DNA of 64,000 bases from Candidatus Micrarchaeia archaeon (GCA_038874595.1 JAVZCB010000005.1:17594-81593), one strand, 5' to 3'; shown: positions 12,850-63,039, counted from the first letter of the stretch. The notes: generated by a model not told the origin, from the sequence alone. Translations and numbers: made by a program.

Positions 12850-13497
12850 TCAATCTTTACGTCGTAAATTGTGCTTTTGGAGAATATCTGAAAGAAGTGA
12901 TACAAGGTAAAATCCAATAAATGCGCCTGCTATAAATCCCGTCAAGCCGCGAATCAGGTTTGTGCTCTCCCACATCCCAAGAAGTTGTGCTGTGCCATCT
13001 AGTCCCATAGGTATGAGCCCTACAAAGAGAAACAGCAGTGATGGCGTTTCTGGAATAAGCCTGCGGATATAAAGAAACGCAAGCCCTGCAAACACCATTC
13101 CTATATATAGCGCTGTATCCCGTGAGCATACAACAAACTTATACCCTATCATTCCATCTCGCTGCACCATCTCGGCCCTGTTTCTTCCTATTTGTGATAC
13201 TGAGTATGAGAATACACCATCCCATGCATGTGATGCCGGAGTAAACACGGTACGGACTATCGCGGTCCCGTTGTAATCATGAGGTATACATTCCCCAACA
13301 GACCACGTACCGCTTGCATTAAAAATGCAAAATGACCTGTAAATCCACTGGTGGCAGAGCGGCTCACCGGCAATATAAAGCCCTCTCGCAACATCTGAAT
13401 AGCCAAGATGGGCAGCTATAGGGCCGCCAAGTGTAAATGCAAGAAGTAAAAGTGAAAAAGACATGTACAATGTGAAGCTTAGCAGGAACTTATCCAT
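12850..13497 (-). CDS. Integral membrane protein (DUF2085-like)
   Basis: Cys pairs near the N-terminus, multiple TM helices, GLDGTAQ motif. Confidence 0.45.
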   Translation of the reverse strand: MDKFLLSFTLYMSFSLLLLAFTLGGPIAAHLGYSDVARGLYIAGEPLCHQWIYRSFCIFNASGTWSVGECIPHDYNGTAIVRTVFTPASHAWDGVFSYSVSQIGRNRAEMVQRDGMIGYKFVVCSRDTALYIGMVFAGLAFLYIRRLIPETPSLLFLFVGLIPMGLDGTAQLLGMWESTNLIRGLTGFIAGAFIGFYLVSLLSDILQKHNLRRKD

Positions 13498-21465: not shown

Positions 21466-22728
21466 TTATCCTGTGCTTGCCGAGTACTTCTTCTCAAGCA
21501 CCGGTTCTGCCTTGACAATCTCATCCCCTACTATATAAACCTCAAACTTCCCAATTTCTGGGACGCCGGCCTTTACCGTGCTTGGGAGAATGGCAGTGAC
21601 ATACATACTCCTTACATAATACTCCTTCCCACCTATCGGTATCGCAATGTTACCGGTTGATGCGTTGCACACCCTATACACTTCCACGGAGATGGGCGTG
21701 TAATTTATGCTTTGCAGCGCATTTGCAATTTTCTGCTCGTCACCTTCATAGTTAAACCTCATTTCAAGCATGGGCGGCGAGAAGGAGACGTTAACTGTAT
21801 TGTTTGTAACTTTCGCAACCACATCACTTATCTGCTCCTCCGTGTATGTATAGTTATCATAAAACACCAGCTTGTTAAACTGCACCACATAAAGGCCTGG
21901 AAGGTACTTCTTTATCTCATTAATCTGTGTTTTGTTAAATGTATCGGTTGCATACACTGTGGTATCGCTTACATAGTTGAACCTGATGTTTGTTGCATTA
22001 ATGGCTTTGAGGGATTCGTTGAGGGCATCGAGCGACCTGCGCACACCTTCCCTATCGTGCCACATAAAGTACATTCTTGCATAATGCTCCGGATATAACT
22101 TTAACGGGAGCACCGGCATATCTACAACTTCGGTGCGCGCAAGTGGGGTCAGCTTTGCGCCTACCACTTGCCCCTTATATATCTGGACAAGTGCGCTGAA
22201 GTACAGCTGCTCGCCCTTCGCGTACGGCTTTGCAACGTTAATCTTGCTCATTGGTATTGATGCCTTTACCTTGCTGCCGTTCTGAAGAGTAAAATCAAAT
22301 GCCTGGCTGCTGTTCACATACGCCTCCAGCAGCATTGTCACATTTTGGTCCAAGGACATCAGGTTCGATGCGACAGGCAGGGTATCATCCCCCGACGATA
22401 ATGTTACTGTGATATACTGTGGGTTTGACTGGTCCAGGTAAATGACCTTATTGCCCGCCTGCAACTGCTTCAGGTAAGCCATTGCTGCAGCATTCGGTCG
22501 CGTGAGCCGGATTACTGGAGAATATGAATTAACTACTAGCATAACGTTCCCCATCCCCACCGAAAGGCTCATCTCCTCTTCTTCAGGTAAGTTCTGGGTC
22601 TGGCTTGTCTGGCCACCGTTTCTAGGCTGGTGCATAAACCACGTAGCAAGTGTTGAAAGCACAAAGATAACTGCAACGAGTACTACGATTGCCTGTATTA
22701 TCTGCATGCGGGTCAGGCTAAGTTTCAT
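21466..22728 (-). CDS. Membrane-anchored extracellular protein
   Basis: N-terminal TM anchor from the ATG at 22728 (track start 22845 is likely upstream of the true start); many N-x-S/T sequons. Confidence 0.5.
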   Translation of the reverse strand: MKLSLTRMQIIQAIVVLVAVIFVLSTLATWFMHQPRNGGQTSQTQNLPEEEEMSLSVGMGNVMLVVNSYSPVIRLTRPNAAAMAYLKQLQAGNKVIYLDQSNPQYITVTLSSGDDTLPVASNLMSLDQNVTMLLEAYVNSSQAFDFTLQNGSKVKASIPMSKINVAKPYAKGEQLYFSALVQIYKGQVVGAKLTPLARTEVVDMPVLPLKLYPEHYARMYFMWHDREGVRRSLDALNESLKAINATNIRFNYVSDTTVYATDTFNKTQINEIKKYLPGLYVVQFNKLVFYDNYTYTEEQISDVVAKVTNNTVNVSFSPPMLEMRFNYEGDEQKIANALQSINYTPISVEVYRVCNASTGNIAIPIGGKEYYVRSMYVTAILPSTVKAGVPEIGKFEVYIVGDEIVKAEPVLEKKYSASTG

Positions 22729-22784
22729 GGGTTTGATTAAGGGGATAAAGTTTAAAGTGTTTTGGATTTGAATAGTGCCGGAAG

Positions 22785-23489
22785 GTGTTATGGATGGCAG
22801 TAGAGAAAGGTGATTTGGTAAAGATAGAGTATACTGCATATACAAAGAGCGGCGATGTCATTGACACGACTGATGCTGAGAAAGCAAAAAAAGGCGGGAT
22901 ATTTGACCCAAAGAAAAAATATGGCGCTGTGGTAATACATGCAGGCCATAACGATGTGCTGGAAGGTGTTGATGAGGGAATCATTGGGATGGAAGAAAAC
23001 GTGCCGAAGGAATTTGAGATCCCACCTGAAAAAGCGTTTGGAAAAAGAAACGAGGACCTGGTAAGGATAATCCCGCTCAAGCAGTTCAGGGAGGCAAATA
23101 TCAACCCTGTGCCAGGTCAGGTTATTAATATAGATAATACGCCCGCAACTATTAGGGCTGTGAACAGTGGTAGGGTGGTTGTGGATTTCAATCATCCATT
23201 GTCTGGGGTCCCGCTGAAGTATGAGGTTAAGGTGCTCAAGGATGCAAAATCGCTTCAGGATAAGGCGTTATTGCTTTCGGAGAAGTATGAGATGAAGGCA
23301 GATGTGAAGGTATCTGGAGATAATGTTTCAGTAGACCTTGGTGTGAGCATATTTGATGATAAGAGGGCGCGCGACTCTGCAGCGGTTGCACTTATTGCAC
23401 GCGAGCTGAAAGAGCACGGTGCAAAGAAAGTCCAGTTCAAGGGTGAATGGAAGCTTTCAGATGAAAGTGCCAACAAAAAAGAGCATTAA
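22785..23489 (+). CDS. FKBP-type peptidyl-prolyl cis-trans isomerase
   Basis: GDLVKIEYTAYTKSGDVIDTT FKBP signature with insert-in-flap and C-terminal domain. Confidence 0.8.
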   Translation: MLWMAVEKGDLVKIEYTAYTKSGDVIDTTDAEKAKKGGIFDPKKKYGAVVIHAGHNDVLEGVDEGIIGMEENVPKEFEIPPEKAFGKRNEDLVRIIPLKQFREANINPVPGQVINIDNTPATIRAVNSGRVVVDFNHPLSGVPLKYEVKVLKDAKSLQDKALLLSEKYEMKADVKVSGDNVSVDLGVSIFDDKRARDSAAVALIARELKEHGAKKVQFKGEWKLSDESANKKEH

Positions 23490-25305: not shown

Positions 25306-25974
25306 TCAATAGCAAAAATGCCTCTTGAAGAGGTAATCTGCAATATTGTTGTTGCCGCACATGCGTGCTATATCAATTGCAGTATGCTGCCATTCATCCT
25401 CAAACAATATCCACGCGCCATTATTAACCAGCATCCTGGCTATGCGCATGCTACCGCTCGCTGATGCAAACATCAACGCCGTGGAGCCAGAGAAGTTGCG
25501 TGCATTGACATCCGCTCCTGCATCAATAAGCATCTTTGCAATTGTTACTTCGCTAAGTGATGCCGCCCACATCAGTGCGTTGTCGCCAAGCACTGTCGGC
25601 AGGTCAACCTGTGCGCCTGCATTGAGCAGATGGGATACAATCCTAATCCTGTTGCACATTGTAGCCAATACTATTACAGGTGTGCCCTCATCATCAACCA
25701 CGTTTGGGTTTGCACCGCTTTCAAGCAGTGCTTTGACCGCACCGCTGTCACCTTTCAGGGTAGCATAAATAAGTGCATAGCCGAGCTGTACGTCATGTCC
25801 CTGCTTGTAAATCCAATTTAAGTCAGGGATGAGCTTATTTATCTTGTTTGTCAAGGGCAGCATAGCATTTTTTCGAAAACTGTTTATCCTATGTGCCTTC
25901 TCTGCGGGGGACTGCGAAGGCTCAACAATAAAATCGCATGCCTGCACTGTTGCTGTTTTCATCTGGCTGATCAT
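25306..25974 (-). CDS. Ankyrin-repeat protein
   Basis: Multiple 33-residue ankyrin repeats with G-TPL..A...G motifs. Confidence 0.7.
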   Translation of the reverse strand: MISQMKTATVQACDFIVEPSQSPAEKAHRINSFRKNAMLPLTNKINKLIPDLNWIYKQGHDVQLGYALIYATLKGDSGAVKALLESGANPNVVDDEGTPVIVLATMCNRIRIVSHLLNAGAQVDLPTVLGDNALMWAASLSEVTIAKMLIDAGADVNARNFSGSTALMFASASGSMRIARMLVNNGAWILFEDEWQHTAIDIARMCGNNNIADYLFKRHFCY

Positions 25975-26334
25975 TTTGCCCCACTCAGTATATATTATTG
26001 TATTTCATACTTAAAAACATTTTGATAGCAGGAAAAGCTAAAACAGGTTAAAAATCATAAAAGCGCTTTTTTTGAAAATTATAGTGAATAGAAGCTTATA
26101 AAAGCGAATTGCGCTTTTATAATTGCTTTTTTGCTCAAACAGATTAACTAAGGTGTTTTTTGCCTCTAAAAAAACAAAGAAAAAGCGTTACCGCCTGAAA
26201 AGTTAAGATTAAATATGGGCATAAAATTTCCGCCTGAATTTTAAGCTTAAATAGAAATTGCTATAATGTATTGGTGCGGGGGGTTAAGTAAAATCGCATG
26301 CCTATGAGTTTTACTGCCTAAGCGGGGTGTTTTA

Positions 26335-29269: not shown

Positions 29270-31405
29270 ATGGAATTAAAGTGGGTGCTACTATCCTTTA
29301 TGTTTATCTTATCGCTCATGGTTATTGTAAATGCTGCAGATTGTCCTACACCTATAAGCGCCCCGGGCACGTATGTTATGAGTGAAGATTATGCTGGCGC
29401 GCCTTATAGTGATCCGATTGTGGATGGAAAAGCGTGTGTAAAAATCACTTCAAGTGATGTCATATTTGACTGCAACAACCACTATATACACAACAATGGA
29501 ACTGCTGGATTAACTTATGGTATTCTGGTTGTCAGCAATTTACCAGTAACAAACGTAACAATAAAAAATTGCCGCGGGATTTATGATTATACCGATGGGA
29601 TATATTTTCACGAAACACAAAACTCGCGAATTGAAAAAGTAGTTTCAAATAATAACGGTAATGGTTTTGTGGTTAATGGTGGCCAAAACAATACTATTTT
29701 CAATAACACTGTGCACTCAAACGAATATGGGATTTCAATATTGAGCTCATCGAAGAATATTGTTGAGAAAAATTACATATATTCACAAAAAGAAGGGGTG
29801 ATTATAACCCTCTCAACAAAAAACACAGTCAAGGATAATAAAATCTATAATAACGTAATTAATGGGATATCCCTAACTTTGTTATCTATGTATAACAACC
29901 TCACAGGAAACACACTTGAGAACAATGGGATACGGGGAGTATATGCAGAACTTGCCTCACACCACAACTATGTCTACAATAATTCAGCAAAAGGAGGGAC
30001 ATGGGGATTTAGGTTTACCTCTTCCGGTAATACCACGCTTATAAAAAACACTGCTAGTGAAAGCATAGTAGGATTTCTTGTTGAGCAAAGCGAGAACTGC
30101 ACCCTAAAAAACAACATTGCCATAAGAAATTCTGATACTGGTTTTGCGGTGGGACAACTATCACACAGGACAAAGATGGAAAACAACACTGGCTATGGCT
30201 CGGATAATGGGCTTTATATTGATACAAGCAATAATGTGGTTGTTGACACGTTTACCACATACAACAACGATTTGTACGGGATATATATACTAGATTCTTA
30301 CGGGGCGCAGATTAAAAACGTGCACGTGTACAACAGCTCAACAGAGTTCTATGCAGAGTCAGGAGGTGTTACAACTTCCATTAGTGTTACAAACATCACG
30401 ATAGATAATCCAAACGGCGGGTTTGTCAACAAGACGGTCCTTAACATATTTGATACCATAAATAACGGTGAAGAGCTTGCAATTAAGTGGGTGAGGAACA
30501 CATATCCCCTACCACCCGGCAAATCTTCGTTTGAAGGCAAGTTCCTTAATATTAGCGGCGTTGCATCCATAAACAAGATAGAATGGCTCTGGACGCTGAG
30601 TGAATCCAGCGGGTACGATGAGGAATCGTTTGAGCTCGCAAAATATAGCGGCTCGGGATGGTCACGCGTAAGTGCAACTCTTGATATTGTACTGCATAAA
30701 ATGACTGTGTACAATTTACTGCCTGCGAGCATATACGGGATTCTTGGTAATGGTAGCACACTAAACTACACAATTGCGGACATATACCGCGCAAACGTAA
30801 CAAACAGGACAAGCCTGGCAAGATGGAGTGGTACTGGCGAGGCAGGGAGGGCAAATATTGAAGGAGGCAACATCAGCGACCTGAACTTAAGCTCAAGAAC
30901 ACTTACAGACAGATGGGCTGCTTTCTATGGTGATATTGTAGGTAGTATTTATCTTACAACCAATGCAGGAGGCCTTTCTAATTATGTTTATATGTGGAAC
31001 TGGGCGCCTGCATACGGTGGTACTGTATGCGCATCAACTAATTCATCGATGTTAAGCATAAATGTGACAGGCGCAAGCGGCAGGGATGTTGATGGTGCGT
31101 GGGGTTTTGGGGATGCGGCTGATAACGGGAGGAACACGTTTGTCGGGCTAGGGTGTGATATCTTGCTTGGAAGCGCAAACGTAACCGGTGCGGACTTTGC
31201 AGACACTGGTGCAGCTGGTGGTTTCAGGACGTGTGCACTCAAGACAAAAAAATCCCCTTCAAAAAGCAATATGCTGTTTTGTACGCGTATAGATGCAAAT
31301 GGTGCGGCCTTTGATAATACACCTGCAAACTTTGAGATTATTGTTCCTACTGCTTTTGGTAATGGTGTGTTTGAGACATACTATTTCTATGCTGCTTTTG
31401 ATTAA
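29270..31405 (+). CDS. Secreted right-handed beta-helix (PbH1) repeat protein
   Basis: N-terminal signal peptide; repeated N-x-I/V beta-helix rungs; many N-glycosylation sequons. Confidence 0.6.
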   Translation: MELKWVLLSFMFILSLMVIVNAADCPTPISAPGTYVMSEDYAGAPYSDPIVDGKACVKITSSDVIFDCNNHYIHNNGTAGLTYGILVVSNLPVTNVTIKNCRGIYDYTDGIYFHETQNSRIEKVVSNNNGNGFVVNGGQNNTIFNNTVHSNEYGISILSSSKNIVEKNYIYSQKEGVIITLSTKNTVKDNKIYNNVINGISLTLLSMYNNLTGNTLENNGIRGVYAELASHHNYVYNNSAKGGTWGFRFTSSGNTTLIKNTASESIVGFLVEQSENCTLKNNIAIRNSDTGFAVGQLSHRTKMENNTGYGSDNGLYIDTSNNVVVDTFTTYNNDLYGIYILDSYGAQIKNVHVYNSSTEFYAESGGVTTSISVTNITIDNPNGGFVNKTVLNIFDTINNGEELAIKWVRNTYPLPPGKSSFEGKFLNISGVASINKIEWLWTLSESSGYDEESFELAKYSGSGWSRVSATLDIVLHKMTVYNLLPASIYGILGNGSTLNYTIADIYRANVTNRTSLARWSGTGEAGRANIEGGNISDLNLSSRTLTDRWAAFYGDIVGSIYLTTNAGGLSNYVYMWNWAPAYGGTVCASTNSSMLSINVTGASGRDVDGAWGFGDAADNGRNTFVGLGCDILLGSANVTGADFADTGAAGGFRTCALKTKKSPSKSNMLFCTRIDANGAAFDNTPANFEIIVPTAFGNGVFETYYFYAAFD

Positions 31406-37294: not shown

Positions 37295-38572
37295 CTAACT
37301 GCTTCTGGTTCTCTTGGCACCTGTCCTGCCGGTAATGCTCCCTGGTTTTGGTTTGAAAAATATCATCAGTAATGCCGCAAGCAGTGAAGCTGCACCCCCA
37401 AATATGAATGTTGCCTCTGGAGATACAACTTTCCAAAGGTATCCTGCAATAACGCTTGAAGGCAATGCTGCAATCCCGATAGCCATCTGGAACATGCCCA
37501 TTGCTGTGCCCCTTAAGTTTGTTGGGGAAAGGTCAGAAGCATACGCTTTCTGCACTCCTATAAATGCTGCTGTGGATATTCCATAAAGCACGAATAACAG
37601 CAACATCGCGCTTGTAGAATTAAGAATTGCAAAGCCGAACAGTATTGCAGCAAACACAACATAGGATATTATGAGAATTGCCCGCTTGCCTATCCTATCC
37701 GCATATTTACCAATCGGATATGAAAATGCCGCCTGGAATATGTTGTAAACGATATATAATAGTATTGAAATGAGCAGCCCTTCTGTGAGGCCGGCTTTCA
37801 TTATAAAAAACATATAGCTGAAATTTGCAAGTGTAAACACCGCTGTTATTCCGGTAAATACCAGCATATCACGCGGCAGCGCCTTCACAGCCGAAAGAAA
37901 ATTATACTCTTTGCCGGTTGGCTTAAACTTTGGCTCTTTCACGAGTACAAGAGGGATTACTGAAAGTATTGCAATAATCCCAGCAAATGCAATTATGAGA
38001 GAATACTCACTTAATGTGGGCTGGGTGAATACATACATTAGCAGAAGAAGAACTGCAACTGAACCAAAAATTGCACCTACCGTATCAAGTGCCTGGTGCA
38101 GTCCAAAGCCCGCACCGCTCTTATTAGGCAGGAACTGGCTTATCATTGCATCGCGCGGTGCATCACGCATGCCCTTGCCCACGCGCTCCAATGATGCCGC
38201 ACCAAGAGCAAGAAAGGGTGATGGTGCAAAAGCCAGGAAAAACTTGAACAAGGCGGAGGTTATATAACCTGCATAAACAAACACCTTTCTTTTACCTATC
38301 TTATCAGATATATACCCAAATAAAATCTTCAGAAAGCTTGTTATTGAATCCCTTATCCCCCCTACAAGCCCTATCAGGACGGAATCGCCACCAAGTGCTG
38401 CAAGGAAAAAAGGTAGTATGGGCATTATCATCTCACTGCTGAAATCGTTTAGGAAGCTGACTACACCAAGCAGTGTTATGTTCTTCACACCTTCTTTCTC
38501 TTTTTTAGGTACATTCGCTTTCTGATTCATAATACAAAATAAGATGAAAAAGCTTAAATTGTGCCATGGCAT
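37295..38572 (-). CDS. MFS transporter
   Basis: About 12 predicted TM helices and MFS signature loops. Confidence 0.8.
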   Translation of the reverse strand: MPWHNLSFFILFCIMNQKANVPKKEKEGVKNITLLGVVSFLNDFSSEMIMPILPFFLAALGGDSVLIGLVGGIRDSITSFLKILFGYISDKIGKRKVFVYAGYITSALFKFFLAFAPSPFLALGAASLERVGKGMRDAPRDAMISQFLPNKSGAGFGLHQALDTVGAIFGSVAVLLLLMYVFTQPTLSEYSLIIAFAGIIAILSVIPLVLVKEPKFKPTGKEYNFLSAVKALPRDMLVFTGITAVFTLANFSYMFFIMKAGLTEGLLISILLYIVYNIFQAAFSYPIGKYADRIGKRAILIISYVVFAAILFGFAILNSTSAMLLLFVLYGISTAAFIGVQKAYASDLSPTNLRGTAMGMFQMAIGIAALPSSVIAGYLWKVVSPEATFIFGGAASLLAALLMIFFKPKPGSITGRTGAKRTRSS

Positions 38573-38580
38573 TAATATTG

Positions 38581-38921
38581 TGAGCGGTTGGTGGGCAGCT
38601 TACGGTGCCTTTCTTTGGTGCAGCTTTCTTTAGAAAGCTGGGAACTTGATAAGCTCCTGTACACCAAAAGAAAGGTACTGAGGAAGGTCCACCCACGCAG
38701 AGCTCTGACTGCATTAATATTGCAGATGGGGGAACAGAAACGGTACCCTCCCCGCCTTATGGGATGAGGATAACGACTTCGGTGGGATAAGGGATGAAAC
38801 GGCCTCCTGTGCAGGGCTGTGAGCGTGCAAGCCCTTTCGGGCGCTTAGACAAATGCTGCCAAGATGAGCATATCCATAAGGAAGTGCATCTTACAGAAGG
38901 TGGCCTACAACCAGCCGCTCA
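38581..38921 (+). ncRNA. rnpB: RNase P RNA (candidate)
   Basis: 10-bp terminal helix UGAGCGGUUG (38581-38590) with CAGCCGCUCA (38912-38921); CR-I-like GAGGAAGGUCCACCC (38680-38694); CR-V-like ACAGAAGGUGGCCUA (38893-38907); these form a P4-like pairing with a bulged U. Confidence 0.7.
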
Positions 38922-38931
38922 TTAAAAATAA

Positions 38932-40395
38932 TCAGTGCTTTGCCTTCTCCAGCAATTTTATGGTCTCAAGCACCACTGAAATCCCTGAACCTGTACAGCC
39001 AAGGTCTACTGGAGGGATTGGCTTGTTTCTGTATGCTGTGCCTGCAATATCCAAATGTATCCATTTCGCTTTTGATATAAAACTGGAGAGGAATGCAGCG
39101 GCGGTTATTGCACCAGCCTCACCGGTGTTTGTAACATTTGCAATGTCTGCAAACTTACCTTTGTTCATCTCTGAGTACTCCTCCCATAAAGGCATCTGCC
39201 ATATTTCATCAAAACTTTCTGAGCTTGCCTTTTTCATCAAGCTGGCAAATTCATCATCGTTTGAAAACATGCCTATGGCATAGGAACCCAATGCAACAAC
39301 ACATGCACCTGTAAGCGTCGCAAGGTCTATCATGTAATCTGGCTTATACTTATCCTCTGCATATGCCAAAGTATCAGCCAGCACAAGCCTGCCCTCTGCA
39401 TCCGTGTTGAGTATCTCTATCGTCTTGCCATTGTATGCTCTTACGATATCACCGGGCTTTGCGGCACACCCTCCGGGCATATTCTCCGTACAGGGCATTA
39501 AGCCTATCACATTGATTTTTGGTTTCATCTCAGCCACGGCCTTCATTATACCTAGCACTGCACACGCACCGCTCTTATCAAATTTCATATCCTCCATACC
39601 TTTGCTTGGCTTAAGTGAGATGCCCCCGCTGTCAAATGTAAGGCCTTTACCTGCAATAACAACAGTTTTCTTTGCACCTGGGCACGTGTATTCCAGGATT
39701 GAAAGTGTCGGCTCCCTTCCACTTCCGCTCGCAACTGCAAGAAACGCATTCATCCCCATTTTCTGCATATCTTTCCTTGAAATAAGCTTGTACTTAAGTC
39801 CTGTGCGTGATGCGAGCTTTTTTGCTTCCGCTGCCATAAGCTGCGGTGTAGCGACGTTTGCCGGCTTGTTTGCAATGTCGCGCGCAAAATTTATTGACTC
39901 TGCAATTTTTCTCGCTTCATTTGCGGCTGCAACAAACTCCTTTTCTACATAAAGGAAAATGTGGTTAGGCGTAACACCATCTTCATCTTTATTGCTCCCA
40001 CCCTTCTCCCCTGTCTTGAATTCTTCGTATTTATGCACATTTACAAAAAGGGCATATGTGAGGTTCTTCAAGTGCAACTGCTCAAGGCCGCGCCCATCAA
40101 TCACCAGTGAAGGCGTACGAAGCGCCTTCGCAAGCCCAATCACGGCGCTTGGAATCCTGCGCGCATGCCTCGGCTTGAATTTTTCTTTCTCACCTAACCC
40201 AACAAAAATTATTCCATCTATGAAAGCGATTTCACCCACCTTTGCTAAAAATTTGTTCTCTGATAGCTTTTTTGCGTAATTACCATACCCCGTAGATATA
40301 GGTTCCGCTACACCCTTCCCACTAAAACATAACACTGCGTGCACTGGTCCCGATAAGTCTTTTTCAATAATCTCAACCTTAGGCTCCTTTACCAT
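38932..40395 (-). CDS. pepA: Leucyl aminopeptidase (M17 family)
   Basis: NTDAEGRLVLAD signature and M17 metal-binding residues. Confidence 0.85.
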   Translation of the reverse strand: MVKEPKVEIIEKDLSGPVHAVLCFSGKGVAEPISTGYGNYAKKLSENKFLAKVGEIAFIDGIIFVGLGEKEKFKPRHARRIPSAVIGLAKALRTPSLVIDGRGLEQLHLKNLTYALFVNVHKYEEFKTGEKGGSNKDEDGVTPNHIFLYVEKEFVAAANEARKIAESINFARDIANKPANVATPQLMAAEAKKLASRTGLKYKLISRKDMQKMGMNAFLAVASGSGREPTLSILEYTCPGAKKTVVIAGKGLTFDSGGISLKPSKGMEDMKFDKSGACAVLGIMKAVAEMKPKINVIGLMPCTENMPGGCAAKPGDIVRAYNGKTIEILNTDAEGRLVLADTLAYAEDKYKPDYMIDLATLTGACVVALGSYAIGMFSNDDEFASLMKKASSESFDEIWQMPLWEEYSEMNKGKFADIANVTNTGEAGAITAAAFLSSFISKAKWIHLDIAGTAYRNKPIPPVDLGCTGSGISVVLETIKLLEKAKH

Positions 40396-42482
40396 AGATA
40401 CACCTTTTTCTTCCTACTATTTATGTAAACTAATATAAAAGAAAATGCTACAAGCACACCTAAAACGGCACAAGCCTTTGCCACGTCCCCGCCAGGTATA
40501 CCATCTACATAAAACTTCTCTTCATGTTCCCGCTCTATACCTGCCTTATCAATCCAGACCACCGAAAGAACATGCTCGCCCGTTTCAAGTAAGGTGCCTT
40601 TATCATCTTTGACTTCCACCCCATCAACATAAACTGCATATGCGATGTAAGGTCCATATACAGCGAACTTGTACTCGCGGCCATCACTGCTCTCTTTTGC
40701 AACTGTGAGCACCGGCTCAAAAACTTCGTATGCCCCTTCGTATGTATACGTTTCAGTATAAAAGTTAGCCACCAATTTTAGCTTGTGGCTGCCTGGTGAT
40801 AAAGGTATGTTGTAATCGAGCACATAAGAAGGAGCTGAAGAATTGTCATAAAATACCTCTTTGCCATCTATATAAACTCTTATATTATATGTGGTGTTAC
40901 CAGTCACTTGAAAGGTTGCTGTAAACCTTCCAGTGCCATCAGAAGGGATTGATGTTGTTAATGATAAGTTATCTACTTTATAAATGGTGTTTGAATAAGC
41001 GGGAGTGCTGGTGGGCAACCGTATCACCTGGACGTGCACGCCATCATATACAAGGATAGAGTTTGTAAGCCCATCACTCAAATCAACTGTAACTTGTTTG
41101 GCTAACTGCGGAGATGCGTATACTTCATCTATACCCCTGTCCTTAACCACAGTAAGATTTTTTGGTGTTATCGAAACAAGCTTAAGTTCAGCTTTACGCT
41201 GGTCATATTTTGATAATATCGCGCTAAACTTCTTTGCCGTCTTTTGGCCGCTGCTAATGCTCAAAGGGATCTTATCAGAGCCAAAACTGTGGGATATCCA
41301 TACCGGGCAGTAATACTGGTAATTGTTTGAGAGCACCTGCGAAACCTTAAATGGAATAATCACATAATTCTTGCCTGGATGCACCAGCAAATTAATTGAA
41401 GAGTCATCAAACCTAATAATTTCAGCTTCGCTTTCACATGGCACTGCCTGGGCGCTAAAAAGCTGGTACTGCACGCTATCAATTTCAATAATGATTGCTC
41501 CATCATCCCCTGGGGCAAGCTGTGCTGGAAGTGTGTAAACTCGATAAGACGGTGTGAACTTGGTATAATTCAGGACAACGATGTCTTCGGTACTTCCACC
41601 AAGAGCGCCTCTACCTTCCCAGACCATATTCCCATATTCTGAGTGTGACATTGCGCGTGCCCTTTCAATCAGCTCTGCACTTGTATCATTGCTGAAATAC
41701 ATAGGTATATGTGTTGCATCTATATACCCCACCTCAAGCCATGTTGGGTCAACACCAACCCATTCACCTATATAAACTTCGGCCCATGAATGTAGCTGCC
41801 AACCATACTTTGGTGAATAAACATAACCCAATACAGAACGGGAAGGGTATCCTAGTGAACGGGCGAGAGCAATAAAAAGATTGGTAAATTCAACACATAC
41901 CCCTCGCGGGTTGGACATAACATCGCTTGAATTTCTGTTCTTTCCCATCTCATTTATATCATAAGAAACATAGCTGTTGACCCAAACTGCGAGCGCTGCT
42001 ATCTTATCTATGTCCTCCTTGTAGCCAGCAGTCACGGCGCGTGCTTGTTTGTGTATTTCAGGTGTGATTATTATGTGCTCTGTCCCAGCAAGATACTCCG
42101 CCCCTGCTTCTTTTGCAGAATAGCTGGTTGGAAGAGAGTGTACATACCTGCTAACAGAGCTAATATTTGCAGAGATAGAATATGAATAGCTCCTGAAACT
42201 TTTGTCGTAATATATCCGTACTACCTGATTTCCACCTTCTTTTGTTATTTTTGCCTCAGGCGGGATTGAAAGTGCCACGTGCTGATAACCAGTATCTTGC
42301 GGGACAGCTAGGTTGATGCTTAATCCATAAAGCTCCCCAGCAGTTGAGGATATCCTACCCTCACGAGAGAGCTGCGCAGTAAGCGAAGAGATTAGGGTGG
42401 GGTTGATATTTTCAAACTGTGCATTTGCAAGCTGGAATAAGAGCAATATGTACAACATTGCAAATGACACACTTCTTCTCAT
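40389..42482 (-). CDS. Secreted transglutaminase-like domain protein with C-terminal TM anchor
   Basis: Signal peptide; transglutaminase-like Cys-His-Asp core (GVCVEF, QLHSWAEVY, VGVDP); C-terminal TM plus KKK tail. Confidence 0.7.
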   Translation of the reverse strand: MRRSVSFAMLYILLLFQLANAQFENINPTLISSLTAQLSREGRISSTAGELYGLSINLAVPQDTGYQHVALSIPPEAKITKEGGNQVVRIYYDKSFRSYSYSISANISSVSRYVHSLPTSYSAKEAGAEYLAGTEHIIITPEIHKQARAVTAGYKEDIDKIAALAVWVNSYVSYDINEMGKNRNSSDVMSNPRGVCVEFTNLFIALARSLGYPSRSVLGYVYSPKYGWQLHSWAEVYIGEWVGVDPTWLEVGYIDATHIPMYFSNDTSAELIERARAMSHSEYGNMVWEGRGALGGSTEDIVVLNYTKFTPSYRVYTLPAQLAPGDDGAIIIEIDSVQYQLFSAQAVPCESEAEIIRFDDSSINLLVHPGKNYVIIPFKVSQVLSNNYQYYCPVWISHSFGSDKIPLSISSGQKTAKKFSAILSKYDQRKAELKLVSITPKNLTVVKDRGIDEVYASPQLAKQVTVDLSDGLTNSILVYDGVHVQVIRLPTSTPAYSNTIYKVDNLSLTTSIPSDGTGRFTATFQVTGNTTYNIRVYIDGKEVFYDNSSAPSYVLDYNIPLSPGSHKLKLVANFYTETYTYEGAYEVFEPVLTVAKESSDGREYKFAVYGPYIAYAVYVDGVEVKDDKGTLLETGEHVLSVVWIDKAGIEREHEEKFYVDGIPGGDVAKACAVLGVLVAFSFILVYINSRKKKVYLW

Positions 42483-52186: not shown

Positions 52187-54142
52187 TTACTGCCAGGGCT
52201 TCTTCCTAAATAGCTGCTTTACCCCAAGCACAAGCAGTGCTATAATCAAAATAACAAACAGCACTGTTGCCACGCTCACAAGCGTTAGGTAGTTTGTATC
52301 CTCTGCACTTTTTGTCTCTGATTTGAGCTTAGCCAGCGCCTCATCAGCATACTGCTTTGCAAGGGCTGGGTCATCATAAAGCATCTTACGCGCCCTCAGT
52401 ATCAGCTCCTCCGCGTCCGTTGTGTTGACTGATGAAGATATTGAAGAGTTCCTTATTGAATTGAGCAAAGCATCCGCTTCTGTAATGCTGGTATTGGCCG
52501 CATAAAACGCAGCTTTCTTTTTCTGGAGTTGTGATTGTGCATCGTTGAGCTTCTCAAGCAGCTCAGTAAGCTTTGCATACGCTGTATCAAGCTCAAAATT
52601 ATCGATATCGCTCCCCACCGTGCCAAGCAGATATTCGATGCGCTCGGTATCTGCTGGTACCTTAAACCTTATGAGGTCCTCTTTAATTGAGGAATAGAGT
52701 GCATCCGCATTCTCAAGCTGTTCCTTGTAATTTTCTATGCGCTTGTTTTCAACCTCCTGTCCAATACCCTGCACCTTAGAAAGTGATGCATACCTAACTT
52801 CAAGCTCCTTTAGTAGGATGTTTGCATTCACATAATCCTCATTTTCAATATACCTGTTAACCTTCTTTATATCCAGAAGTATCTTGTTTGCCGCATACTG
52901 CAACGAGCCGGATAAGTTCTTTGAGAGGGCAGTTGTACTATCAAACAAGTCTGCACTGCGGTTTTTCAAACGCTCCGAAACGAGAGGGCCTGCAAAAGAT
53001 AAGTCACCATCGAGCTGCGGCTCAATCCCTTTCAATGTTGAGTATGCTTCATCATACTTGCCTTTGCTTATTAAATCTGATGCATTGCCTAAGTGCTTAT
53101 TATAGAAACTGCACCTGTCTATAACCTGTAAGTTAAGACTGTTTGCAACTGCAAATATATCACATACCTTGTTTACTTTTGAATATATCCCGTCATATAT
53201 TGGTGTTACGTCCTCAGGCCCGAGCAAGCTTGTTTTATTAAGGAAAAATACCAATAGCGAGTTATTCTTATAATCTGTTACATAAAGTAAACCGTTTGAG
53301 GTTGATATCCCGGAAACCTGGCCGAATTTGTAAGATGGAGCCCCAATCGAGTACAAAATGCGCCCATCTTCGCGCAGCAACACCTCTATTGATACCCTGT
53401 CCCCTTGTACAACATAAATGTAATCATCATCAACTGCAATCTCTTGCGGCCTTGAAAGTGTGCTAGTGCTTCCGCGCCCATAGGATTTTAAGTATGTTGA
53501 TTCATCAGCGAACACCGCTATGCGGTTGTTATACGTATCCGCTATGTACAGCGTGCCGTTGTATACACACATCCCTCTTGGGGAATTGAATATTGCATCA
53601 CCAATGCCAAGATATGTCCAGCTTATGCTGCTTCTGTAAGAATACTTGTTTGCTTCATATTCCTTAAGCACGTTCACCTGCCCTTTCTCGCTGTCAAGAA
53701 CATATATAGTATTTTCAAAGGCAGCTATTGCAGCCGGCCCTGCGGGCTTATAGGATTCGCTGTCTCCCCTGAACTTGAGCTCACCGGTCCCCTTGTCAAA
53801 CTTGAACACGCGGCCTCCCCTATCAAGCACATATACATAATTTTTATCAGCCCATGCGCTGACAACTGCTGCCATATAATCCTGCTCACCGGGTGTATCA
53901 GAGCCGTATACCTTGCTAACGCGCAGCTTACCCGTCGGGTCAATGTAATACTTTGTTAGGAGACGGTAGTTGTCATACCATATGTAAAGGTATGGTCCGT
54001 CAGCAAACACTCCTGATACGTGCAGGTCCTCACGCAAAGTATACTTATCTTTGAGCTCAAATCTTGCAGCCCATACCATTGTTGACAACAAAAGCAACAA
54101 GGATATGGATAATACTGTAAAGCCCATTCTTGAATTTGCCAT
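52187..54142 (-). CDS. NHL-repeat beta-propeller surface protein with coiled-coil and C-terminal TM anchor
   Basis: Signal peptide; repeated NHL-like blades (YVLD, LYIADTYNNRIAVF, LYVTDYKNNSLLVF); C-terminal TM plus basic tail. Confidence 0.6.
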   Translation of the reverse strand: MANSRMGFTVLSISLLLLLSTMVWAARFELKDKYTLREDLHVSGVFADGPYLYIWYDNYRLLTKYYIDPTGKLRVSKVYGSDTPGEQDYMAAVVSAWADKNYVYVLDRGGRVFKFDKGTGELKFRGDSESYKPAGPAAIAAFENTIYVLDSEKGQVNVLKEYEANKYSYRSSISWTYLGIGDAIFNSPRGMCVYNGTLYIADTYNNRIAVFADESTYLKSYGRGSTSTLSRPQEIAVDDDYIYVVQGDRVSIEVLLREDGRILYSIGAPSYKFGQVSGISTSNGLLYVTDYKNNSLLVFFLNKTSLLGPEDVTPIYDGIYSKVNKVCDIFAVANSLNLQVIDRCSFYNKHLGNASDLISKGKYDEAYSTLKGIEPQLDGDLSFAGPLVSERLKNRSADLFDSTTALSKNLSGSLQYAANKILLDIKKVNRYIENEDYVNANILLKELEVRYASLSKVQGIGQEVENKRIENYKEQLENADALYSSIKEDLIRFKVPADTERIEYLLGTVGSDIDNFELDTAYAKLTELLEKLNDAQSQLQKKKAAFYAANTSITEADALLNSIRNSSISSSVNTTDAEELILRARKMLYDDPALAKQYADEALAKLKSETKSAEDTNYLTLVSVATVLFVILIIALLVLGVKQLFRKKPWQ

Positions 54143-57314: not shown

Positions 57315-58777
57315 ATAAAAATAAGCGCGCACCGGCAGATAAGGAAAACAGTATGGTGCGGGATAACCAAAACCTGAACATGCGTGCAGTAATTGAGCCG
57401 AGCAGTATTGTAGTTATTGGTGCATCAAGAAACCCATCAAAGGTTGGGTATGCCGTGCTCAAGAACCTTATCACGAGTGGGTTTAATGGCTGGCTTTATG
57501 CCGTAAATCCGAACGCTGATAACATACTTGGTGTGAGATGTTACAAGAGCATCAAGGAACTCCCTCAGAAAGTTGACTGTGCAATAATAGCTGTGCCTGC
57601 AGAAAACGTAAATGAGATAATCGAGGAATGCGGCAGAAAGGGGGTTCGTGGAGCAATTGTGATTTCCGGCGGGTTCAAGGAAGTTGGGGAAGTGAAGCGT
57701 GAGTTGGAGCTCACAAAAATATGCAGAAAATATGGCATTGCAATGATAGGGCCGAACTGTCTCGGGATAGTAAATAGGAAAAAGCACGTTGACAGCATAT
57801 TCCTCCCAACATATAAGATGAAGAGGCCGCAGCTCGGGAAGATTAGTTTCGTGACACAGAGCGGTGCCGTCGGCTCAACAATACTCGACCTTATAGGGGA
57901 GTCAAACATAGGTGTCTCAAAATTCATATCGTACGGTAATGCTGCTGTCATTGATGAGAGTGATTTGCTGCGCTATCTGCGTGAGGATGCTGACACATCG
58001 GTTGTGGTTATGTATATCGAAGGTGTAAAGGACGGCAGGAAGTTTTATAGGGAGCTTAAGGAAACATGCGCAGTCAAGCCGGTTGTTGTCTTAAAGGCAG
58101 GAAAAGGTGCGTTGGCTGCAGGTGCGGCAAAATCACATACTGGTGCGCTTGCAGGTGATTACAAGATTTTCCAGGCAATGCTGAAACAAGCGGGTGCGGT
58201 TGAGGCGACAAACCTGCCGGAGTTATTCAACTTATCAAAGATATTCCTACAGCCATTGCCCAAAGGGGATAGGATGTTCGTGCTCACGAACGGTGGTGGC
58301 GATGGTGTGCTCGCAGTGGATGCAATCGAAAGGAACGGGTTGAAACTGGCACAACTGAGCGGGAAAATGCGTGCAAAACTGCGGAGGATTCTGCCAAAGC
58401 ATGTTGTTGTTGGCAACCCGTTTGACCTAACAGGCGATGCGGACAGCACGAGGTACAGGACCGTGCTTGAAGAGGCAGTAAAAGAGGAGGGCATCGATGC
58501 AATCATTGCAATAACACTGTTTCAAACGGCCGGCCTTGGCTCTGAGGTCGTCAATGAGATTATAAGCGCCGATATCAAAACGGATAAAACGATTGTATCT
58601 GTTGCAACTGGTGGTGAGTATACGCGCCTCCTCCTCAGCATAATAGAATCTTCCGGAATACCTGCGTATGGGTCGCCAAGCGAAGCTGTTGATTCAATCG
58701 CAAAGGCGTTATGGTATTATAAGAAGAGGGGTGTGGGCCGCGGGACAGTACAAAGCGCTGGAGACGGCAGCGTGTGA
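57311..58777 (+). CDS. NDP-forming acetyl-CoA synthetase (ACD), alpha subunit
   Basis: CoA-binding VIGASRNPSKVGY and catalytic-His loop GKGALAAGAAKSHTGALAG. Confidence 0.8.
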   Translation: MNKNKRAPADKENSMVRDNQNLNMRAVIEPSSIVVIGASRNPSKVGYAVLKNLITSGFNGWLYAVNPNADNILGVRCYKSIKELPQKVDCAIIAVPAENVNEIIEECGRKGVRGAIVISGGFKEVGEVKRELELTKICRKYGIAMIGPNCLGIVNRKKHVDSIFLPTYKMKRPQLGKISFVTQSGAVGSTILDLIGESNIGVSKFISYGNAAVIDESDLLRYLREDADTSVVVMYIEGVKDGRKFYRELKETCAVKPVVVLKAGKGALAAGAAKSHTGALAGDYKIFQAMLKQAGAVEATNLPELFNLSKIFLQPLPKGDRMFVLTNGGGDGVLAVDAIERNGLKLAQLSGKMRAKLRRILPKHVVVGNPFDLTGDADSTRYRTVLEEAVKEEGIDAIIAITLFQTAGLGSEVVNEIISADIKTDKTIVSVATGGEYTRLLLSIIESSGIPAYGSPSEAVDSIAKALWYYKKRGVGRGTVQSAGDGSV

Positions 58778-59700
58778 GCAGTATGATAGCCCAGCTAAAC
58801 AGTATTGTCCTGCTTTTTCTCCTTTATTTAAACATCAAGCTCATACGGAAATATATTGATACCGATGATGCAAATTATGTCATTGCATTCGCTGTACTTC
58901 TCTTCTTGTTCTTCAACCTATGGTTGGGAGCGTATGCGGAAATACTCGGCAGGTTCCAGCAGCAGTTCACAATTGCTATGAACGCGTTGCCAATGATAAT
59001 TGTAATTGTGCTTGTGTGGCTTGAAGGAAAAAGGAAAAAGGAAGAGCGGGAAAGAAGGAAAACGCGCGAGTTCTTCTCAAAGTATGTTTCAGAGAAGATT
59101 GTAGACACTCTCCTCAAGGAAAAACAACTTGAGCTTGGCGGTGAGAAGCATCAAGTAACTGTTCTTTTCACGGATGTGCGCGGGTTTACTGCAATGTCTG
59201 AGAGGCTTGACCCGAAGCAGGTCGTTGAAGTGCTTAACGGGCACTTTGATATAATCAATGAGGAAATATTCAGAGAAAATGGTACCGTGCTCAAGTATAT
59301 CGGAGACTCTGCAATGGCTGTGTTTAATGCCCCTATCTTGCAGAAAGACCATGCTGAAAAGGCTGTGCGGGCGTGCATAGCCGTGCAAAAAAGGATGAAA
59401 GAATACTCATCTACAGTTAAAGGTAAAATGAATATTGATTTTGCAATTGGTATAGGGATAAATAGCGGTGAAGCGGTTGTCGGCAATATCGGCTCACACA
59501 AGTATATGGATTATACGGTCATAGGAGATGCCGTGAACACGGCGTCGCGGTTAAATGGCATTGCAAAAGCTGGTGAGATAGTCGTGAGTGAGAGCACATA
59601 CGAGCTCATTAAAGACAAGTTCAGGTTTAGCAAACCAGAGGAGGTTCCAGTTAAAGGGAAGGTGCTTCCAGTCAAGGTTTATAGGGTGCTTTATGAATAG
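58774..59700 (+). CDS. Membrane-anchored class III nucleotidyl (adenylyl) cyclase
   Basis: N-terminal TM helices; CHD domain with metal-binding Asp in FTDVRGFT and IGD, substrate Lys in KYIGD, transition-state GDAVNTASRL; start overlaps the ACD alpha stop. Confidence 0.75.
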   Translation: MSSMIAQLNSIVLLFLLYLNIKLIRKYIDTDDANYVIAFAVLLFLFFNLWLGAYAEILGRFQQQFTIAMNALPMIIVIVLVWLEGKRKKEERERRKTREFFSKYVSEKIVDTLLKEKQLELGGEKHQVTVLFTDVRGFTAMSERLDPKQVVEVLNGHFDIINEEIFRENGTVLKYIGDSAMAVFNAPILQKDHAEKAVRACIAVQKRMKEYSSTVKGKMNIDFAIGIGINSGEAVVGNIGSHKYMDYTVIGDAVNTASRLNGIAKAGEIVVSESTYELIKDKFRFSKPEEVPVKGKVLPVKVYRVLYE

Positions 59701-60327: not shown

Positions 60328-61140
60328 TTAATCTGTGCTTGCAAGGAAGCTCCACCACGGCCTTTTCTCATTTATTATGGTGCCGTTGACCGCATCCACA
60401 GACATCTCAACATCCATATCTGCATCAAACAGCCAGAGCAGTTTTGCACGGCGCGTCGCATTTATTGCATATTGAGGTATACCATTGGCAACGCGAAGCT
60501 CTACTGATTTCATCTCCCTTATGCGTGTTTTTTGGGAAATCTCTGATGGGAGCACGCGTATTGCAACGCTGGATGCGTGGAGCGTGCCGTTCTCTATGCG
60601 GAGGTTCTCGCGCGTGCGCACCCTTACTCCTGCATCATTTATTATTACACCGTCATCTTTTTCTGCGGCCTCTAACCACATATCGCGGTTGTTGGCACGG
60701 ACCCTGACGCGTAAAGTTTCATTAATTGCGAGTGGGACATCCTCAAGGATTGCCGACCTGTTTGATGCTATTATGCGCACCAACATTCCCTGCGGCACAT
60801 CAATCGTGCCGTTCTTGCGGGACTCTATTATGGCGTGCACCTGCTCGGATATGCCGCTCCTGTTGCGCTCCTGCTCCCTCGCCTGCACTGCTTCGGTTGG
60901 TGTGCCAGTCCCGTTCCCGTCCTTCTCCCTTGTTGCCTGCTGCTGCTCGGTGCGGACTCTCTCCTGCTCTTCGATACCGGTACCCTTGCCTGTGCTTGCC
61001 TCATTCTGTTCTCGGATTTCATTCTGAATTTCGTTTTGTGCATTGCTTTTTGCAGCGCCTGAACTTGATATTGCAAGCACTGGGTAAATTGTCAAAAGTG
61101 AAAAAATGCAGATGGCCAACAAGTAATTTTTCAGGTTCAT
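60328..61140 (-). CDS. Secreted hypothetical protein
   Basis: Signal peptide, Gln/Glu-rich low-complexity region, several N-x-T sequons. Confidence 0.45.
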   Translation of the reverse strand: MNLKNYLLAICIFSLLTIYPVLAISSSGAAKSNAQNEIQNEIREQNEASTGKGTGIEEQERVRTEQQQATREKDGNGTGTPTEAVQAREQERNRSGISEQVHAIIESRKNGTIDVPQGMLVRIIASNRSAILEDVPLAINETLRVRVRANNRDMWLEAAEKDDGVIINDAGVRVRTRENLRIENGTLHASSVAIRVLPSEISQKTRIREMKSVELRVANGIPQYAINATRRAKLLWLFDADMDVEMSVDAVNGTIINEKRPWWSFLASTD

Positions 61141-61234: not shown

Positions 61235-62365
61235 TCAGATGTGGTTTTTGCTGCTTGTGCGTATGGCAACATAAAGGAGCATTACAAATGCAAGAACAAC
61301 CGCTGCTGTGCCGCACCCTTGCGGCCTTGGCGCTATATCTGTTGATGTTGAGCTTGTTTGTGAGAGCGGCTCGGATATCTGGTTTATAGTTACCATAGCA
61401 TACAAGCTGAGCCCGTCTGTGTGCACTTCATATATGTAATACCCGTCAATTTCTGAAACTGTTGGGGTTAGCACTTCAACCCTGCCGTCATCAGTATAGC
61501 GGAGTATTACCACTTCACCGGAGACCTGCTCTTTTGGCACTTTAAACCTGAGCGTTGCCGATTTTATATTTACACCATCAAGAAGATTATGCATGTTTAC
61601 CTCGATTGCATCCAAAGCCGAATACCCCGCCGTATTATTATATCTGAGTTGTATCGCCTGCTTGAATTTCTCACGCACTTGGTCATTTAGCTCGGCTCTT
61701 TGCGCATTAATTAATGAGTTCTCATTAACAGAATCTAAATCCGCTGCAATCTCAACACCGAGACCGCTATCAAGAGTGCCTGTAATTGAGAGTATGCCAT
61801 CCTGCAAAGTAAGATGCCCATCCTCCTCATTCACAACTGTACCCCCAAGCGACACTGTTAAGCCTTTGGATGGGTGTTCTTCAAAAGCAATTTTAGGAAT
61901 AGGGTCACAAAAACCAAAAGATTTTGATTTGTCCCCAAGCTTGAATGTACAGCCATCTTTATCACAGGTTGAATATATCTTTGCACCGCGTATGCTACAG
62001 GAGACTGTATGCTCATCGCTGTTGGCACATTTGCACTCTGCACCTGAAATGCTCTTGCACATAATCTGGACAAGAGTTGAGGATGGCTGAATTCTGCCTA
62101 TATCTGTTTCCTCGCCTAATAGTTTTGCCTTACAGGAGTTACCGTCACAGGACACTATAAGGTCCTCTTTTAGGTCTATAACGCAAACCGCACCTCCTTG
62201 CGCTGGCCTGCACGCACAGGATGCGTGGAGCCGTGACTCGCATACCTTTTCAAGCACAAGCGTATTGTTGGACGCTGATGCGGGTATGCATTCCACCTGC
62301 ACGGCGTTAGCTAACGTTGCAAACATTACGAGTGCAACCAGAAAATATTGGATGTTTTGTTGCAT
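61235..62365 (-). CDS. Cysteine-rich secreted protein with C-terminal TM anchor
   Basis: Signal peptide, Cys-rich N-terminal module, C-terminal hydrophobic helix. Confidence 0.5.
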   Translation of the reverse strand: MQQNIQYFLVALVMFATLANAVQVECIPASASNNTLVLEKVCESRLHASCACRPAQGGAVCVIDLKEDLIVSCDGNSCKAKLLGEETDIGRIQPSSTLVQIMCKSISGAECKCANSDEHTVSCSIRGAKIYSTCDKDGCTFKLGDKSKSFGFCDPIPKIAFEEHPSKGLTVSLGGTVVNEEDGHLTLQDGILSITGTLDSGLGVEIAADLDSVNENSLINAQRAELNDQVREKFKQAIQLRYNNTAGYSALDAIEVNMHNLLDGVNIKSATLRFKVPKEQVSGEVVILRYTDDGRVEVLTPTVSEIDGYYIYEVHTDGLSLYAMVTINQISEPLSQTSSTSTDIAPRPQGCGTAAVVLAFVMLLYVAIRTSSKNHI

Positions 62366-62421: not shown

Positions 62422-62877
62422 ATGCAAAAATTCCATAAAAGAAACTGTGAAAGGAAAAAGAGCCGTTTACCTAATCTTGAGCCAAAGGTTGAGCAGGCGG
62501 TAGGAAATACTAGGCAAAAAGACCTAGATGCAATTCTCCTGAGAGCGGCTGCTGAAAATAATTATGAAAAAGTGGTCAAAGCTGTCCTGGCAGGAGCCAA
62601 TATAAACGCACAGGATGAAGACGGGAATACGCCGCTTATGCACGCCGCATCTAACTTGCGTGAAGATATAGCAAGGTTCCTTCTTGAAAATGGTGCGGAT
62701 ATCAACATCAAGAACAAATACAATAATACTGCCTTAAAGATTGCAAAAGGGTTCTGCAGCAGAAAGGTTATTGCGCTGATTAAAATGTATAAAAAAAGCG
62801 CCTCCAATAAAGCTGCTAATCTTAAGAAAAATGAGTGCAAAAACACAAAAACGGAGGGGTTTTTAGAACCAACCTAA
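62422..62877 (+). CDS. Ankyrin-repeat protein
   Basis: Ankyrin consensus DGNTPLMHAASNLREDIARFLLENGADIN. Confidence 0.65.
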   Translation: MQKFHKRNCERKKSRLPNLEPKVEQAVGNTRQKDLDAILLRAAAENNYEKVVKAVLAGANINAQDEDGNTPLMHAASNLREDIARFLLENGADINIKNKYNNTALKIAKGFCSRKVIALIKMYKKSASNKAANLKKNECKNTKTEGFLEPT

Positions 62878-62895
62878 CTTTGTGTACTCATAAAA

Positions 62896-63012
62896 TGGAC
62901 TCGCGGGGATTTGAACCCCGAGCCTCCACCTTATCCTTCTGCTTTTTGGAAGAGAAAGGGGTCTCCCTGCCTCTCTTGCGAAGGTGGCGTCATGCCGTTA
63001 GACCACGAGCCC
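62896..63012 (-). tRNA. tRNA-Ala (anticodon CGC) with about 45-nt intron
   Basis: Hand-folded cloverleaf: acceptor GGGCUCG/CGAGUCC with G3:U70, T-arm CGGGG-UUCAAAU-CCCCG, anticodon loop UUCGCA[intron]A, discriminator A; T-run follows the 3' end. Confidence 0.8.
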
Positions 63013-63039
63013 AATCCAGATAAGGGTTTTAGGGCGTGT

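Follow-up and report, generated by a model that had tools for sequence, protein, structure and literature searches.

Two ankyrin-repeat genes of a Micrarchaeia archaeon and the probable cytoplasmic role of one of their products

The locus and its two ankyrin-repeat genes

The stretch of DNA analysed here (hereafter the window, 64,000 nucleotides in length) carries an ankyrin-repeat gene, Ank1, on the minus strand at positions 25306-25974 and another one, Ank2, on the plus strand at 62422-62877. The archaeal provenance of the window, recognized already in the initial annotation, is borne out by the genes for the Hjc resolvase, TFE (TFIIE-alpha) and RIO1, by an archaeal RNase P RNA and by an intron-containing tRNA; the other neighbours include Trm5, FKBP26, UvdE, a UMP kinase of the amino-acid-kinase fold, an ATP-cone RNR, ABCE1 and aIF5B/IF-2. 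Both ankyrin genes are located on contig JAWAEQ010000005.1 of the Micrarchaeia MAG GCA_038891275.1, and the assignment of the lineage to the Micrarchaeia (DPANN) follows from the NCBI names of a protein identical to Ank2 and of the Ank1 orthologue; in the NCBI taxonomy, Candidatus Micrarchaeia is placed within the kingdom Nanobdellati (DPANN). The RNase P RNA gene lies on the plus strand at 38583-38919, between the ORFs at 37295-38572 and 38932-40395, and scores 91.4 bits against the Rfam model RF00373 (gathering threshold 84).

When read from the ATG at 25974 to the stop codon at 25306-25308, Ank1 encodes 222 amino acids. The true start, to judge from sequence comparison, is probably the ATG at 25962 instead, which yields a protein of 218 residues, because the corresponding methionine, M5, is invariant and lines up with the N-termini of both homologues, P0001 and P0002 (see below), in a three-way alignment, and because the 218-residue form is the gene call in the NCBI record JAWAEQ010000005.1 (GCA_038891275.1). 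The product is an ankyrin-repeat protein, as originally proposed: it matches Pfam Ank_2 (8.2e-24, 84.4 bits against a cut-off of 27.3) and Ank (4.8e-23, 80.4 bits against 21.1) and also exceeds the Pfam gathering cut-offs for Ank_3, Ank_4 and Ank_5 (the models of the Pfam clan Ank that are concerned are PF00023, PF12796 and PF13637). The second ankyrin gene is equally real, with three repeats and matches to Ank_4 (2.3e-15, 56.8 bits, cut-off 22.7) and Ank (5.2e-15, 55.2 bits, cut-off 21.1), and the two genes are indeed unlinked, with 36 kb between them. A phmmer search covering every stop-to-stop ORF with 40 or more amino acids (707 in total) detected no third ankyrin ORF in the 64 kb.

The five ankyrin repeats of Ank1, delineated from the 33-residue register and an AlphaFold2 model, occupy residues 62-222 (25309-25791, minus strand) and display the pattern ...TALMFAS..GS.RIA.MLV..GA... 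together with loops of the GADVNARN type. The model, which was built from an alignment of 59 sequences and is a prediction rather than an experimental structure, has a mean pLDDT of 88.4 and a pTM of 0.85, with pLDDT values of 93-98 in the repeats, and contains helix pairs at residues 60-74/77-85, 100-106/110-118, 133-139/143-151, 166-173/176-184 and 199-205/209-221. In a Foldseek comparison, it superimposes on five-repeat DARPins with an rmsd of 1.0-1.4 A and TM scores of 0.92-0.96 (normalised to the target), and the sequence matches in the PDB are to DARPins and to the membrane-binding domain of ankyrin-1/2, with 32-37% identity (1e-56 to 1e-20). The repeats are predicted to form a rigid, DARPin-like solenoid of five helix-turn-helix units. 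This likeness means that the repeats are close to the consensus and does not imply orthology: DARPins are synthetic, and ankyrin-1/2 is, unlike Ank1, a 24-repeat cytoskeletal adaptor of eukaryotes.

The repeats are preceded by a basic N-terminal extension of about 61 amino acids (25792-25974, minus strand), which stands out both in the AlphaFold2 model and in composition, with a pI of 9.65 for residues 1-60 compared to 4.99 for the repeat domain. In the model, residues 1-16 are disordered, a long helix spans residues 23-47 (pLDDT of approximately 77) and a short one residues 52-57. The extension has no match in Pfam or NCBIfam. Among the three family members, nine of its 60 columns are invariant (Q21, S22, R29, R34, K44, P50, D51, W54 and the start methionine), and at the DNA level its 60 codons are 39% identical to the sister MAG introduced below, compared to 70% for the repeats. 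Within the repeats, as far as three sequences can tell, the canonical ankyrin contact positions are invariant less often (8 of 29, 28%) than the framework positions (63 of 133, 47%).

Ank2 encodes 151 amino acids (pI 9.73), with three repeats at approximately residues 34-125 and a basic tail at either end. The protein is identical to MEM3364659.1 and MEM4332226.1, both named 'ankyrin repeat domain-containing protein [Candidatus Micrarchaeia archaeon]'. Convergent with Ank2, and with 18 nt between the Ank2 stop codon and the tRNA 3' end, is a gene for tRNA-Ala(CGC) with a 45-nt intron (62895-63013, minus strand; 50.1 bits to the Rfam tRNA model), which is missed by a default ARAGORN run and found when introns are allowed.

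Relatives, synteny and inheritance

The best homologue of Ank1, P0001, is a protein of 216 amino acids, 68% identical over residues 46-221, that is encoded in the sister Micrarchaeota MAG GCA_026413685.1 and bears the NCBI name 'ankyrin repeat domain-containing protein [Candidatus Micrarchaeota archaeon]'. The genes around P0001 follow the order seen in the window throughout, namely ABCE1, a membrane protein, a NosD-like beta-helix protein, RNR, Ank, UMP kinase (pyrH), UvdE, FKBP, a hypothetical protein, Hjc, Trm5, a further ORF, NFACT and MetRS. From this conserved position, it follows that the ancestor shared by both genomes already had Ank1 at this site. Ank1, at 68% protein identity, has diverged faster than the housekeeping genes that flank it, which range from 94% for Hjc through MetRS (89%), RNR (88%), UMP kinase (87%), ABCE1 (86%), FKBP (84%), NFACT (75%) and Trm5 (74%) to 72% for UvdE; the surface and hypothetical proteins are at 56-62% (56-74% for the hypotheticals across the block). 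The NosD-like surface protein, at 57% identity, is also fast-evolving. A gene model in this block might need correction: the 459-codon ORF at 21466-22845 (minus strand), which begins with TTG, overlaps the FKBP gene (22785-23489, plus strand) by 61 nt, its orthologue in the sister MAG has 415 amino acids, and the alignment of the two sets in at residue 19, so that the true start is probably located downstream.

Beyond P0001, the searches recovered a single full-length relative, P0002, also of 216 amino acids, which is 46% identical to Ank1 over 90% of the query; when all three proteins are aligned together, the identities to Ank1 are 58% for P0001 and 43% for P0002. The three proteins have in common the N-terminal signatures QS..R....R and PD..W and the C-terminal signature IADYLxxKHF (IA.YL..KHF); in addition to the invariant residues of the extension listed above, Y214, L215, H219 and F220 are invariant in all three. 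A profile of the Ank1 family matches 429,126 protein clusters among the 1.84 billion representatives searched, with giant multi-repeat proteins dominating the list, and among the best 150 of these 429,126 matches (those scoring above 355 bits), P0001 and P0002 are the only ones that align over their full length in one uninterrupted stretch. No further member came to light when JGI metagenome contigs were scanned with two peptide patterns specific to the family, and a search with P0002 as the query returned only P0002 itself, one fragment and generic matches. All other matches of Ank1 are generic as well, cover the repeats alone (residues 60-220) at 30-45% identity, and are mostly to bacterial MAG proteins. 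A contig scan with Ank1, driven by the generic pattern IDAGADVN, listed 80 bacterial loci at the same 30-45% identity and is uninformative with regard to lineage distribution, given that even the source genome and the sister MAG were not recovered. One apparent relative, P0052, was discarded: it comes from marine TARA contigs with tandem ankyrin genes that are unrelated to this family.

Compared to generic prokaryotic ankyrin proteins, Ank1 is alike in the Pfam models that it matches, the 33-residue period, the loops and the five-repeat solenoid, and differs by the extension of about 60 amino acids and the IADYLxxKHF end, which belong to no database family. GenBank already lists Ank2 and P0001 as ankyrin proteins, and the sole new element here is the small subfamily that these two terminal features define in the alignment. 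The contig of P0002 (ERZ1426824, 6927 bp) carries a run of ten tightly packed genes on the same strand, of which eight encode ankyrin proteins of 196-319 amino acids. This array could represent an expansion of the family in a relative, or else in a donor or recipient lineage.

So could these genes have been acquired from outside? The initial annotation pointed to the sporadic occurrence of ankyrins in archaea, and this part of the argument stands: a 2014 survey identified ankyrins in 15 of 133 archaeal strains (11%), at a mean of 5.25 repeats per protein (PMC3932732). If the Ank genes had been acquired recently, by horizontal transfer from a bacterial, eukaryotic or viral source, this patchy distribution would be readily accounted for, as would the fact that, past the orthologue and P0002, the best matches of Ank1 are bacterial MAG proteins (31-45% identity). 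The bacterial similarity, though, is limited to the consensus-like repeats and is what would be expected of any near-consensus ankyrin. Furthermore, the composition of Ank1 (GC 0.472, GC3 0.502, codon-usage deviation z = 1.07) is typical of the window, in which GC is 0.454 +/- 0.027, GC3 is 0.474 +/- 0.046 and the interquartile range of z is 0.26-1.74 (57 ORFs), and the orthologue in the sister MAG is syntenic and has diverged to 68% identity. The genes flanking Ank1 contain no mobile-element or integrase domain detectable with Pfam, and the same holds for integrase domains in the scanned genes upstream of Ank2 and in TFE. Recent transfer of Ank1, as entertained at the outset, is therefore largely refuted by its native composition and the syntenic orthologue. 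For Ank2, the homologue search returned the 100% self-match alone, followed by matches of at most 44% identity over 42% of the query, including a fungal protein; the borderline-low GC content of 0.401 (approximately 2 sd under the window mean, with GC3 of 0.407) and the abutting tRNA gene could be read in the same direction. Against this, its codon usage is unremarkable (z = 0.49), and the 3' end of the tRNA-Ala has no att-like repeat elsewhere in the 64-kb window. On balance, we consider recent acquisition of these genes quite improbable. Ancient transfer of Ank1 into the lineage may have occurred; phylogeny is of no help at this depth, given how weak the signal in near-consensus repeats is, in line with the observation of Jernigan and Bordenstein that ankyrin repeats are poor in phylogenetic signal (PMC3932732). 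Ank2, in turn, may be a lineage-specific addition, for which the self-match, the GC content of 0.40 and the tRNA gene next to it are weak hints; it is a second ankyrin protein, very basic and unrelated to Ank1, and seems to be confined to this species.

The spacer between Ank1 and RNR

Ank1 and the RNR gene are divergent, and the 360-bp spacer between them (25975-26334) is conserved in the sister MAG (L001 7609-8000) at a level resembling that of coding sequence, with 70% global and 82% local identity, especially at 26040-26330; the remaining intergenic regions of more than 60 nt show 6-48% identity. The spacer holds long invariant blocks, the motif CCGCCTGAA(N3)TTAAG that occurs twice, 39 nt apart, at 26188-26199 and 26227-26238, and the short palindromes TTATAAAAGCG/CGCTTTTATAA at 26096-26122. 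It yields only chance-level matches to Rfam and contains no ORF of 50 or more codons; the alignment available to RNAalifold consists of two sequences, too few to back any structure. The spacer presumably carries the promoters of both genes, and AT-rich, TATA-like elements upstream of Ank1 suggest that this gene is driven by a promoter of its own. The strong conservation probably reflects a regulatory leader of RNR or a group of operator sites; a small RNA of a new kind is another candidate.

Could this arrangement betray the function of Ank1? Under one possible scenario, Ank1 would be tied to nucleotide metabolism or DNA repair, regulating or scaffolding RNR, UMP kinase or UvdE, and its expression would be coupled to that of RNR by the conserved divergent promoter region that the two genes share. 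In both genomes, Ank1 is indeed wedged between a divergent class II-type RNR and the pyrH-UvdE pair on its own strand, and the spacer, with its duplicated motif, is far better conserved than the others. Yet, adjacency carries no specific signal, because unrelated housekeeping genes are syntenic as well, over 17 kb or more; P0002 is not adjacent to any such genes; and the conserved blocks are mostly proximal to RNR, whereas the side of the Ank1 start is poorly conserved and includes a 15-nt indel. More generally, because the entire 17-kb block is syntenic in two close relatives, the gene neighbourhood is uninformative with regard to the function of Ank1. A role in nucleotide metabolism or repair accordingly strikes us as rather improbable.

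An exact 15-mer, TAAAATCGCATGCCT, is present both at the 5' end of the Ank1 coding sequence (25929-25943) and just upstream of the RNR start (26289-26303), at a distance of 360 nt. The 14-mer core, GGCATGCGATTTTA, occurs exactly at these two sites alone in the 64 kb and, with up to two mismatches, three times compared to 0.74 expected; the copy on the Ank1 side is not conserved in the sister MAG, and the repetition may be due to chance.

Cellular location and function of Ank1

The initial annotation combined the ankyrin genes with the many secreted and anchored proteins of the window into a possible sign of a symbiotic or episymbiotic lifestyle. The abundance of such proteins is confirmed, inasmuch as about seven of the 57 ORFs have signal-like N-termini, several of them together with C-terminal anchors; neither ankyrin protein, though, is among them. 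With export and membrane segments judged by the maximum Kyte-Doolittle hydropathy over 19 residues (a heuristic, as opposed to a dedicated signal-peptide predictor), Ank1 and Ank2 have no hydrophobic N-terminus, transmembrane segment or lipobox: the maxima are 1.31 and 0.87, respectively, compared to 2.31-2.36 for the secreted or anchored products of the neighbouring ORFs at 29270, 60328 and 61235, and both N-termini are polar or basic. A secreted or host-contacting role of the ankyrins thus finds no support in the sequences of the two proteins.

The predicted surface proteins themselves are encoded at 12850-13497, 29270-31405, 40389-42482, 52187-54142, 60328-61140 and 61235-62365; among them are the NosD/beta-helix protein and a protein with NHL repeats. 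The pair adjacent to Ank2 (270 and 376 amino acids) belongs to no Pfam family.

Ankyrin stacks bind other proteins and have no catalytic activity of their own. The explanation of Ank1 that we favour, and consider probable, is that it is a native, soluble, cytoplasmic ankyrin protein with the role of an adaptor or regulator, a reading supported by the lack of an export signal, the native composition and vertical inheritance. Under this hypothesis, the concave face of the solenoid, formed by the hairpins and the first helices, would bind one or more partner proteins, and Ank1 would act through such binding as an adaptor or regulator, without catalysis. The cytoplasmic location is what we infer from the export analysis, and protein binding as the mode of action is extrapolated from general knowledge of the ankyrin fold.

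An architectural analogue among archaeal proteins is tANK of Thermoplasma volcanium, an ankyrin protein of five repeats with a solved structure (Low et al. 2008, cited in PMC8229355). tANK is, like Ank1, small and soluble, and it comes from the order that hosts the cultured Micrarchaeota. The resemblance is one of architecture only; tANK is absent from the best 60 PDB sequence matches of Ank1 and from the top 50 Foldseek matches.

The hypothesis of a cytoplasmic adaptor has to be weighed against the possibility that Ank1 and/or Ank2 is an effector of host interaction. By analogy with the ankyrin effectors known from intracellular bacteria and from bacteria associated with sponges, such a protein would be delivered to, or displayed at, the contact with a host archaeon, and its ankyrin stack would bind a host protein. 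In the Dot/Icm paradigm, it is the ankyrin stack of a symbiont or pathogen that binds host proteins, and the Dot/Icm effectors of Legionella and Coxiella (AnkH, AnkY, AnkG, AnkX) share ankyrin repeats with Ank1. The similarity ends there: among the NCBIfam equivalogs for these proteins (NF043020-NF043029), which give 14-58 bits against cut-offs of 500-1400, the best match of Ank1 reaches 57.7 bits against a cut-off of 600 and covers the repeats alone, and, unlike the Dot/Icm effectors, Ank1 comes without effector domains, a T4SS or a eukaryotic host, the last being the target at which the known paradigm aims. No secretion system is encoded near the ankyrin genes, and the hydropathy profiles described above also count against delivery.

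The features of Ank1 that are compatible with an effector function are its faster divergence relative to the housekeeping neighbours, with the N-terminal extension as the most divergent part, and the tandem array of eight ankyrin genes around P0002, a layout typical of effector expansions. From the literature, one can add that bacteria living in association with hosts are enriched in ankyrin proteins (PMC3932732) and that surveys of DPANN count ankyrins among the cell-interaction domains of symbionts (PMC7414124). Undinarchaeota are reported to be without ankyrins (PMC7414124). As for the lifestyle, the symbiosis suggested in the initial annotation is plausible on grounds of lineage, because the cultured Micrarchaeota require Thermoplasmatales hosts (PMC8975820); the ankyrin genes provide no independent evidence of it, and some Micrarchaeota have been argued to be weakly host-dependent or free-living (PMC12892359). 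Our literature search found no report that links ankyrins and Micrarchaeota. Taken together, these considerations make an effector function of either protein unlikely in our view.

A more specific version of this idea deserves mention, even though we regard it as highly unlikely. Cell-cell bridges have been described for DPANN-host pairs, and Ank1 may leave the cell without a Sec-type signal, for example, through such bridges. The Ank1 family, with its five repeats and conserved basic N-terminal helix, would then be specific to DPANN and would represent an adaptor that is exported by a non-classical route and acts on the host archaeon; the N-terminal extension could provide the signal for targeting or translocation, and the array around P0002 could be an expanded effector repertoire in a relative. 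Were this the case, Ank1 would be the first archaeon-to-archaeon ankyrin effector.

Returning to the cytoplasmic adaptor, the present observations add two ankyrin proteins to a short archaeal list, one of them vertically inherited within a Micrarchaeia lineage, and caution against over-reading: an ankyrin gene in an archaeon does not, by itself, imply horizontal transfer or a symbiosis effector. Identification of a binding partner, especially a host protein, would carry more weight, given how little is understood of the molecular interplay between DPANN archaea and their hosts.

A separate observation concerns the gene at 58774-59700 (plus strand). Its product, of 308 amino acids, combines three N-terminal hydrophobic segments with the catalytic domain of class III adenylate/guanylate cyclases (PF00211, 1.9e-33); among archaea that have reduced genomes, signalling by cyclic nucleotides is uncommon.
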